A stretch of DNA of 64,000 bases from Escherichia coli (GTDB lineage: Bacteria; Pseudomonadota; Gammaproteobacteria; Enterobacterales; Enterobacteriaceae), in assembly GCF_030013205.1 (NCBI RefSeq), contig NZ_CP122648.1; one strand, written 5' to 3'. Within the stretch, counting starts at the first letter, position 1. Each line of letters starts with the position of its first letter. Position numbers: made by a program. Below, one piece after another: positions 51,301-54,300 of the stretch.

Positions 51301-54300
51301 CTAATTATTTAAAATTAAAGCCATCCGGATGGTTTTCCAGGCTGCCGGTCAACGCCGCGAACAGCACCGTTTTACCATCAATCGAAAGCGCATCGTTCAC
51401 ATTCAACCAAGTGAGTTTCTCTTGCGACGTTTTCTCATCAATAGTCGAGAACAGCCCCGTCATCTGATTAGATTTCTCGGACCACATCACAGCGATACGT
51501 TGCGAGCCACAGTCATACGGTTTGCACGCGCTCATCACCTGATACGTCTCATCTCCCAACGTTACGGTTTGTGCGGGAGTATAAGTACCGCCTTTCATCA
51601 CCCATGCAGGTAGCTTATGCCCTTGCACCATCTGATTAAACGCAGCTTTGGTGGTTTCGCCCTTTGCAAGGCTGCTAATGGTTAAATCATCCTGCGCCAT
51701 TGCACTGGTGGCGATGACCAGAGCGGCGACTGTCGTTATTGCCTTAAACATCATTCCTCCCGAGCTTATCCTGCCCATGTTATTAACCTCCTAAAGCCTG
51801 GCGATAACACGATAATTTGCAAATCAGATATTTCCAATATCAGCATTTGTTATCAATTTATTCTGCGCTAAGGCAACTGCCTGATAAGGTGTTAGAGTTA
51901 TAAAACCCTTCGCATAAAGGAGTTGTACACCGTGCCTGGTTTGAAGATTACGCTTTTACAGCAACCACTGGTGTGGATGGATGGTCCTGCCAACCTGCGT
52001 CATTTTGATCGTCAACTGGAAGGTATTACCGGGCGCGATGTGATCGTTCTACCGGAGATGTTTACCAGCGGCTTTGCCATGGAAGCGGCAGCTTCGTCGC
52101 TAGCACAAGATGACGTAGTGAGCTGGATGACAGCCAAAGCGCAGCAGTGCAATGCGCTGATTGCAGGCAGTGTTGCATTACAAACGGAGTCTGGTTCGGT
52201 TAACCGCTTTTTGCTGGTTGAGCCGGGCGGCACGGTACATTTTTATGATAAGCGTCATCTGTTCCGCATGGCAGATGAGCATCTACATTATAAAGCGGGC
52301 AATGCGCGAGTGATTGTGGAATGGCGCGGCTGGCGTATTTTGCCGCTGGTGTGCTACGACTTACGTTTTCCTGTGTGGTCGCGCAATCTCAACGATTATG
52401 ACCTCGCCCTGTACGTCGCCAACTGGCCTGCTCCGCGCTCTCTGCACTGGCAGGCATTGCTGACGGCCCGCGCGATTGAGAATCAGGCGTATGTAGCGGG
52501 ATGCAATCGCGTCGGCAGCGATGGCAACGGCTGCCATTATCGCGGTGACAGCCGGGTGATTAATCCACAAGGCGAGATTATCGCTACTGCCGACGCGCAT
52601 CAGGCAACACGCATTGATGCGGAGCTGTCGATGATGGCATTGCGGGAATATAGAGAAAAGTTTCCGGCATGGCGGGATGCGGATGAGTTTAGGTTGTGGT
52701 GAGTGGGTGTTGTGTTTAGGGCCGGGGAGAGTCAGGGTAAGACTACGAAAGCCCGCTCCCTGCAAGGACTGACGCCAGGTAGTTTCTGTCCATGGCTGCT
52801 TTTCGCATCTTACGTCTTAACCCTGCCTTGAATACATTATCATTCGTTAAAATATTAATAGCGATGTGCCGTATCCCTGAAAATAATTCTGCTGCATTTC
52901 CTCTTCTTATTTTTCAGTCGTCTTTATTCATTACCACGTCCAGACGCCAGTGCAGCTTATTCTCCACGTGCCAGTGGTTTCGGATTGCTGTGGCGAACTT
53001 CTCTGCGGTTAAATCAGCAGAACTGATATAATATCTGACCGTCATTTCTGGCTCTTTCTTTTGTTCTGCTATTATTGACCGAAAGGAGACTGCCACACAT
53101 AATTTCTTCAGTCCTTTCCATTCAAACGTGAAATCAATAAGTTCATCAGGGACATCGCAAACAATATGAAGACGGATTTCTTCTCTGCCGTGACTCTTTT
53201 CACTAATGGCGTAACTGTCATGCTCTGGATTATTTAATTCTTTCAGTGGAAATTTTTCCTCAAAGGCTTTATTAAGCCGCCCCTGATTTCCTTTTACAGC
53301 GAATAAATAATCACCGCCCTGTTTTTGTATCTTCTCTGCAATATCTTTCTGGCAACCCATCGCATCAGTTGTGATGATTTTTCCTTTAATATCCAGCACG
53401 TTAAGAAGTTCAGGGATAGCTGTGATTTCATTGAATTTCTCATCCGTCCTGATCTGTCCGATGACCAGACTGTGCATTGTTGAGAACGCACTAATGACAT
53501 GAATCGCTCCCCTGCGGCGACTCTTGTCATAAGAATGCCGGAGCGTTTTTCCATCAATTGCAATGACGTCTTTATCATCTGAAGAATGGCAGTCACGCAT
53601 CCAGTTAATAAAGCACTCGTGAAATTTTGCAGGACTGATACAGGATACAACTCTGGCAATGGTATCGTGAACAGGAATACCATTTTCAAAATCACCGTAT
53701 TGTTTTAAAAAATCGAGATGTGTTTCCCCAAAATCCTCTATATCTTCCCAACCTTCTGCACCAGAAATAACGGCACAAATAGTCAACAGTAGAATATCCG
53801 ATAATTTATGTTCCACTTTCCAGGCTTGTCTGTAATCGGGAATAATAGAAATATGCTCCATCAATTTTTTAAGTTCCATTTTGTTCTCCTTAATTATGTA
53901 AGGAGTATTTGATCATGTATACGCAATAAAAAACAGCTTCAGGTAATGAGGAATATCTCAATTTTTAAGCATAAAATGCGAATTGTTTAGTACAAAAAAG
54001 CAGCGTTACGTGATCTTTCCCTGCACTTCACCCTAACTTTAATTTAACTTCAAGAAGTATTAAGGCCTCAATAGCGAACTTAATACTTCTTAAAGAATAT
54101 CACTCCTGACCAAAATCTTTCCACACTAATGCATGAGACTTTGATTTATCACCCAAAAATTTACTTACATCTTTCCAAAGTAAAGAATTGCTATCGGTCG
54201 CAGTGACTATTGCCTCTATAAGCCCTGTAGCTACAACTGTGGCCAATTCATCATCAATCGAGACCATACCATCTTCGACATGTTTAAATATTTTTTCTCT

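Follow-up and report, generated by a model that had tools for sequence, protein, structure and literature searches.

An ISEc1 (H-repeat) relic beside yafV in Escherichia coli, its transposase very probably cut short by a lineage-specific nonsense change

The 64,000-nucleotide stretch of Escherichia coli contig NZ_CP122648.1 analysed here (the window) carries, between yafV and a C-terminal fragment of an rhs gene, a copy of the insertion sequence (IS) ISEc1, or H-repeat, in which the transposase frame is interrupted by one in-frame opal codon (Table 1). A preliminary description had placed a 378-codon ISAs1/H-repeat transposase frame at 52743-53879, with a single TGA at 52914..52916, directly after yafV and next to an Rhs fragment, and both its coordinates and its codon count proved exact. 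On the minus strand, the frame opens with an ATG at 53879, which an AGGAG Shine-Dalgarno sequence (53887-53891) precedes by 7 nt, and continues through 321 sense codons, the TGA, 56 further sense codons and a TAG at 52743-52745. The sum is 321 + 1 + 56 = 378 codons, with the terminator extra; the 57 codons earlier counted downstream of the stop are obtained only when this terminator is included, the sense codons being 56. The placement was likewise recovered, in that the end of the IS lies 30 bp from the yafV stop and that the element sits downstream of the rhs fragment and its adjoining immunity-like open reading frame (ORF). The association of Rhs and H-repeat also holds; the order of rhs, 125-aa ORF and ISEc1 is that of strain AF40.

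The family assignment rests on several matches. With Cys in place of the stop, the repaired protein matched the NCBIfam equivalog model NF033564 (transpos_ISAs1) at 409.1 bits (E 1e-122; cut-off 70 bits), residues 29-344 covering profile positions 1-314 of 314, and it matched the Pfam domains DDE_Tnp_1_assoc (PF13808) over residues 8-94 and DDE_Tnp_1 (PF01609) over residues 102-343. The 321-residue product scored 379.5 bits against NF033564 and covered profile positions 1-291 of 314 only, so that the last 23 model positions are gone. The repaired protein passes the family models, and the DNA shows 96-97% identity to intact copies of ISEc1, named "ISAs1-like element ISEc1 family transposase" by the NCBI Prokaryotic Genome Annotation Pipeline (PGAP); the frame therefore did not arise by chance. 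Judged by sequence, the gene is an ISAs1-family, ISEc1 (H-repeat) transposase, as had been proposed. It possesses the model score, the domain architecture with its catalytic triad, and the single-ORF layout of about 1.2-1.5 kb with imperfect ends that characterize the family; what it lacks is the intact transposase ORF, which is broken at codon 322. The copy is therefore classed as a pseudogene or relic of the family, because its ORF is interrupted and because transposition has reportedly not been observed for H-repeats. The identical DNA in NZ_CP062203.1 already bears the RefSeq/PGAP label "ISAs1 family transposase", pseudo, "internal stop", the gene standing there between yafV and a hypothetical gene of 125 aa, which itself comes after an RHS gene truncated at the N-terminus, and the finding is thus on record in public annotation as an ordinary, known dead copy of ISEc1.

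The limits of the element were set by homology with copies elsewhere, as the repeat search did not report its imperfect terminal repeats. Copies at unrelated loci matched positions 84-1374 of the query 52650-54100, which correspond to 52733-54023, and an identical 1,291-bp span was found in copies L002, L003 and L004. Both terminal repeats start with CAGGG and agree with one another at 15 of 21 positions (CAGGGTAAGACTACG... versus CAGGGAAAGATCACG...), and the transposase-proximal repeat is the same in the window and in these three copies. No target-site duplication was found around the window element, the flanks ..GGGGAGAGT and CACTTCACC.. being unrelated, and the L004 copy is likewise without one. 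Duplications of 8-10 bp are known for some ISAs1 members. As they are not universal in the family, their absence does not bar membership, and it is consistent with an old, rearranged insertion. A scan for promoters and terminators returned no more sites than shuffled sequence.

Table 1. Features of the ISEc1 insertion and its flanks (window positions).
Feature	Coordinates	Strand	Basis or remark
ISEc1 (H-repeat), ISAs1 family, structurally complete, 1,291 bp	52733..54023	-	Homology limits against copies at unrelated loci
Terminal inverted repeat, transposase-proximal end, CAGGGAAAGATCACGTAACGC (minus-strand reading)	54003..54023	-	Read from sequence
Terminal inverted repeat, transposase-distal (yafV-side) end, CAGGGTAAGACTACGAAAGCC	52733..52753	+	Sequence
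Transposase pseudogene, 378 codons + TAG	52743..53879	-	Frame reading; PGAP pseudo, internal stop; Pfam/NCBIfam
Truncated ORF, 321 aa, still translatable	52914..53879	-	Keeps DDE_Tnp_1_assoc (8-94) and predicted triad D109, D172, E306
Premature opal codon TGA, codon 322	52914..52916	-	TGC in 8 other copies, TAC in one
Untranslated rest of frame, 56 codons	52746..52913	-	Three would-be C-terminal helices; near-invariant R337
yafV (2-oxoglutaramate amidase), convergent neighbour	51932..52702	+	
125-aa ORF overlapping the rhs stop, presumed Rhs-tip immunity gene	54100..54477	-	Weak DUF7674 match below Pfam cut-off
rhs C-terminal fragment (RHS repeats, core, toxin tip), N-terminus deleted	54477..56666	-	

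In order to define the lesion, the window copy was compared with nine other full-length ISEc1 copies: three from the same yafV locus of other strains (L002, L003 and L008), five from other loci in other records (L004-L007, and L009 from O157:H7), and one from the RhsC region of the same genome (L013, also L013b). Codon 322 is TGC (Cys) in eight of the nine and TAC in L008, in agreement with the earlier expectation of a Cys codon at this position. Eight of the nine have an uninterrupted 378-codon ORF; the L013 copy has a stop of its own elsewhere, yet reads TGC at codon 322. Relative to the eight intact copies, three of which are PGAP-named ISEc1, the window copy shows 28-46 nucleotide differences over 1,137 nt, and five positions are private to it among the ten copies, including an A for C at nt 966. 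As read from this comparison, the lesion consists of one transversion, C>A at nt 966 (TGC>TGA), and the in-frame opal codon is the sole ORF-breaking change in the window copy.

The distribution of the TGA allele was determined in 5,426 complete E. coli genomes with a 55-nt query centred on the TGA, every 28-nt seed word being forced to contain it. The allele occurs in 18 of these genomes, every one of swine origin, and each carries it just once, at the yafV locus. Furthermore, the whole segment 52650-54100 (1,451 bp) is 100% identical to porcine E. coli chromosomes, among them K_EC180, O139:H1 P15-25 and several enterotoxigenic E. coli (ETEC) strains. A gene-conversion donor within the window was considered and rejected, as self-BLAST found a single copy of ISEc1 and no second one in the 64 kb. 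The distribution of the allele shows an event that is recent and confined to one lineage, for which no donor copy exists elsewhere, and the TGA in combination with S149F provides a clean lineage marker for the pig-associated ETEC/O139:H1 clone.

The segment that lies beyond the stop is conserved throughout the family. A HMMER search of 1.84 billion cluster representatives yielded 29,361 homologues. Among the best 150 of these, distant full-length homologues (36-53% identity, 363-404 aa) align through query position ~370-375, and the short entries are fragments of 93-98% identity. In an alignment of 41 sequences, each of the 40 distant full-length homologues extends to query position 372-378 and none stops in the vicinity of 321, and the hidden Markov models reach residues 343-344; no intact family member was thus found to end where the window copy does. 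A natural short isoform was rejected on the combined evidence of Pfam/NCBIfam coverage, the best 150 representatives and this alignment. Invariant in the alignment are D109, D172, E306, H302, W303, H310, W311, L313 and D314, while E319, D320 and R337 are nearly so. The residue at position 322 varies (among the 40 homologues, 17 have C, 16 have S and 7 another residue), so that Cys at this position is the norm of ISEc1 and not a family-wide constraint.

An AlphaFold2 model of the repaired protein (mean predicted local distance difference test score 93, predicted template-modelling score 0.90) places the stop with respect to the active site. In the model, helix 292-316 bears E306, the stop falls in the loop 317-328, and the helices predicted at 329-345, 354-363 and 365-373 are lost by truncation. 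Of the solved structures, the Tn5 transposase comes closest in fold to the repaired protein (Foldseek E 2e-9, template-modelling score 0.52-0.54).

Taken together, these results make it very probable that the window holds an ISEc1 relic, the transposase of which was cut by a lineage-specific C>A nonsense change and the product of which is transposition-deficient. What is shown here is the identity and the limits of the element, the mutation, its confinement to one lineage and the conservation of the lost segment throughout the family. According to this scheme, ISEc1 occupies an old and widely shared site, at the end of an hcp-vgrG-rhs-immunity module associated with the type VI secretion system (T6SS) and beside yafV. 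Its single gene encodes a DDE transposase of Tn5-like build: a DNA-binding domain at the N-terminus, an RNase-H-like core with D109, D172 and E306, and C-terminal helices. In the ancestor of the pig-associated lineage (ETEC / O139:H1), the transversion turned codon 322 from TGC (Cys) into TGA, so that translation halts 16 residues past the catalytic glutamate, in the loop after its helix, and the last 57 residues are missing. The C-terminal region of the Tn5 transposase is needed for formation of the synaptic complex. By likeness to that region, the 321-aa product would probably be unable to transpose the element, and we infer that it was the stop that inactivated the element, and neither S149F nor E319K. 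Both ends of the element survive, which leaves it a non-autonomous relic. The ratio of nonsynonymous to synonymous substitution rates (dN/dS) of the window copy relative to the eight intact copies is only 0.06-0.17, and its sequence has therefore been constrained for most of its history.

Several observations weigh against so simple a history. The 321-aa product keeps all three predicted catalytic residues, and of the stop codons of E. coli UGA is the leakiest, such that traces of full-length protein may be made. Two substitutions affect conserved sites, S149F (S in 35 of the 40 homologues) and E319K (E in 40 of 40), and the transposase-distal repeat departs from the CAGGGAAAGATTACG of L002 and L003 at positions 6 and 11. 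With these two substitutions and two repeat changes, the copy may already have been impaired when the stop arose. The statement in the preliminary description that one point mutation inactivated the element thus stands insofar as a single change breaks the ORF; inactivation by this change alone is plausible, although it may not be the sole damage. Furthermore, H-repeats are listed as insertion sequences, yet their transposition has reportedly never been observed (PMC3032704), and to speak of "inactivation" consequently presumes an activity that is itself undocumented.

These same points raise the possibility that the copy was dead before the nonsense mutation, whether through S149F, E319K, the altered repeat or a general immobility of the element, and that the TGA is but a later symptom of relaxed constraint. 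Such an order of events is less probable. In its favour, in addition to the two substitutions, the two repeat changes, the missing target-site duplication and the unobserved transposition, the copy at the same locus in K-12 and L008 shows W311R at an invariant position together with a degenerate CGGGG end, and two other ISEc1 copies of the same genome are also nonsense pseudogenes. Conversely, about 388 other genomes, O157:H7 for example, have K319 in an otherwise intact 378-aa ORF; in all, the allele occurs in 406 genomes, including the intact O157:H7 copy beside ybgA. The low dN/dS relative to the intact copies also argues for purifying selection through most of the history of the sequence. 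As for S149F, 19 genomes carry F149, namely the same 18 that have the TGA plus L008, and with distributions so nearly equal (19 versus 18) either of the two mutations may have come first.

Truncated transposases of other elements act as regulators or inhibitors, and the 321-aa protein might similarly be functional, either as a trans-acting regulator or inhibitor, its intact N-terminal domain binding ISEc1 ends, or as a still-active enzyme. The retained DDE_Tnp_1_assoc domain and D109/D172/E306 triad, the strong AGGAG ribosome-binding site ahead of the ATG, and the presence of four other ISEc1-like places in the genome would all suit such a role. Against it, the segment that was lost is conserved across the whole family, and the allele is limited to one clonal group, in which selection on it is not measurable. 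Moreover, the other copies of the same genome are stopped at codons 16 and 65, as would be expected of random decay rather than of a designed truncation. A functional short protein is therefore very unlikely. An equally slim chance attaches to a dominant-negative product regulating other ISEc1 copies in trans, or to leaky UGA readthrough that would make the element an attenuated, self-limiting IS of porcine ETEC/O139.

Selenoproteins are classically recognised by a UGA at a position where their homologues have Cys, and the window TGA does stand where eight of the nine other copies have TGC, followed by an open frame. If the codon were decoded, as selenocysteine or through programmed or high-level readthrough, full-length transposase would still be made. 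This hardly seems credible, as a 73-nt segment surrounding and following the UGA is no more stable when folded (-6.0 kcal/mol) than shuffled sequences are (z 0.18), no Rfam family, those of the selenocysteine insertion sequence (SECIS) included, was found near the site at E<=10, and the allele is present in 18 genomes only. The matches returned by the Rfam scan at this threshold were spurious eukaryotic or small-RNA hits away from the UGA. In addition, no SECIS could have co-evolved with the codon, because the sequence downstream of it is that of ordinary TGC alleles. Selenocysteine insertion and recoding were rejected on these grounds; low-level readthrough may occur, and nothing points to a programmed event. 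Finally, a sequencing or assembly error can be dismissed, since 17 other complete assemblies, the work of several projects and countries, contain the identical TGA-bearing 55-mer, an 18th differing at one other base, and the TGA is thus found in 18 independently assembled complete genomes.

The remaining ISEc1 copies bear on how ordinary such decay is and on whether an intact one might mobilise the window copy in trans. Of the four other ISEc1-like places in the NZ_CP062203.1 genome, two were located, both in the RhsC region (L013 10956-12092 and 6920-7687) and both nonsense pseudogenes, with stops at codons 16 and 65 and the second also truncated. Point-mutational decay of ISEc1 is thus general in this strain, and independent nonsense decay of copies in one genome fits a view of H-repeats as immobile relics rather than active insertion sequences. 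The significance of the window copy beyond correct annotation is small; it confirms a pseudogenised ISEc1 at a long-known Rhs/H-repeat site. The ydcC/nhoA locus is deleted in NZ_CP062203.1: the whole nhoA-ydcC-rhsE-ansP region, the site of an ISEc1 copy in K-12, is missing, and two IS91 copies lie between a truncated narZ and yncJ (L014 4576-11312).

The yafV site itself varies between strains. In strain 19SZHZ869Rt (L008 2337-3473), codon 322 is TAC (Tyr), W311R affects a family-invariant Trp and the end has degenerated to CGGGG; an IS1A adjoins ISEc1 there, and tssM is truncated. Between yafV and the ISEc1 end, L002 carries a 39-bp duplicate of the CAGGG end (about 4070-4130) and L003 a 384-bp insert with a partial transposase (4148-4459). 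These extra remnants of ISEc1 ends suggest repeated insertion or tandem copies at the yafV site, followed by deletion.

The surroundings of the element are best understood by comparison with strain AF40, where the order is tssB (leftward), then hcp, vgrG, rhs (1,499 aa), the 125-aa gene and the ISEc1 transposase (rightward), and yafV (leftward). Apart from a deletion of 5,262 bp, by which hcp, vgrG and the initial 2,310 bp of rhs were lost, the window is collinear with AF40. The deletion junction lies at 56658-56666 and has a 9-bp overlap (compare L011 15964-21225), and what is left is an orphan rhs toxin tip and its presumed immunity gene facing tssB. The T6SS cluster is therefore without its own spike and effector-delivery genes. 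No Pfam toxin domain was matched in the C-terminal tip of Rhs (~250 aa), and the 125-aa ORF reached 20.7 bits against DUF7674, for which the cut-off is 27. An AT-rich hairpin at 54048-54095, with 17-nt arms of 94% complementarity and a 14-nt loop, separates the end of ISEc1 from the stop of the 125-aa ORF and may serve to terminate the rhs-immunity transcript; a simple terminator scan gave no call at this hairpin.

Among the closest known systems is the ISEc1/H-repeat (H-rpt) of the E. coli Rhs loci, whose K-12 products are YhhI, YdcC, YbfL and YbfD. It is the same 1,291-bp element, with one 378-codon ORF and CAGGG ends, and it has the same placement just downstream of rhs and the immunity/tip genes. 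Unlike other ISEc1 copies, the window copy carries the TGA at codon 322, the essentially private S149F and M161V, and the more widespread E319K. At the level of the family, the prototype ISAs1 from Aeromonas salmonicida and the other members described by NF033564 share the DDE_Tnp_1_assoc and DDE_Tnp_1 domains, the invariant triad and the layout of a single ORF in ~1.3 kb between short imperfect inverted repeats, from which the window copy departs by having no visible target-site duplication and a product that falls short of the end of the model. More distantly, the structures of the Tn5 (IS50) transposase (PDB 1MUH / 4DM0) and the model of the repaired protein have in common a DNA-binding domain at the N-terminus, an RNase-H core interrupted by a beta insertion, and helices at the C-terminus. 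The two proteins differ in that their sequences are only ~10% identical and belong to the IS4 and ISAs1 families, respectively, and the part that the C-terminal helices play in synapsis would be carried over from Tn5 by analogy.

A further comparison is with the yafF pseudogene of K-12 (b4503; L010 5099-5379), which represents the same insertion at the same locus, with equal spacing to yafV. Homology between K-12 and the window covers yafV and 291 bp of the IS, stopping at window position 53023, and yafF is therefore a stump, 291 bp long, of this ISEc1 insertion. The remainder of the element has been deleted in K-12 along with the rhs/T6SS cluster, and the stump has TAC (Tyr) at codon 322, W311R and the degenerate CGGGG end. 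In the window, by contrast, the element is still full length, and in all probability it was a point mutation that killed it instead.

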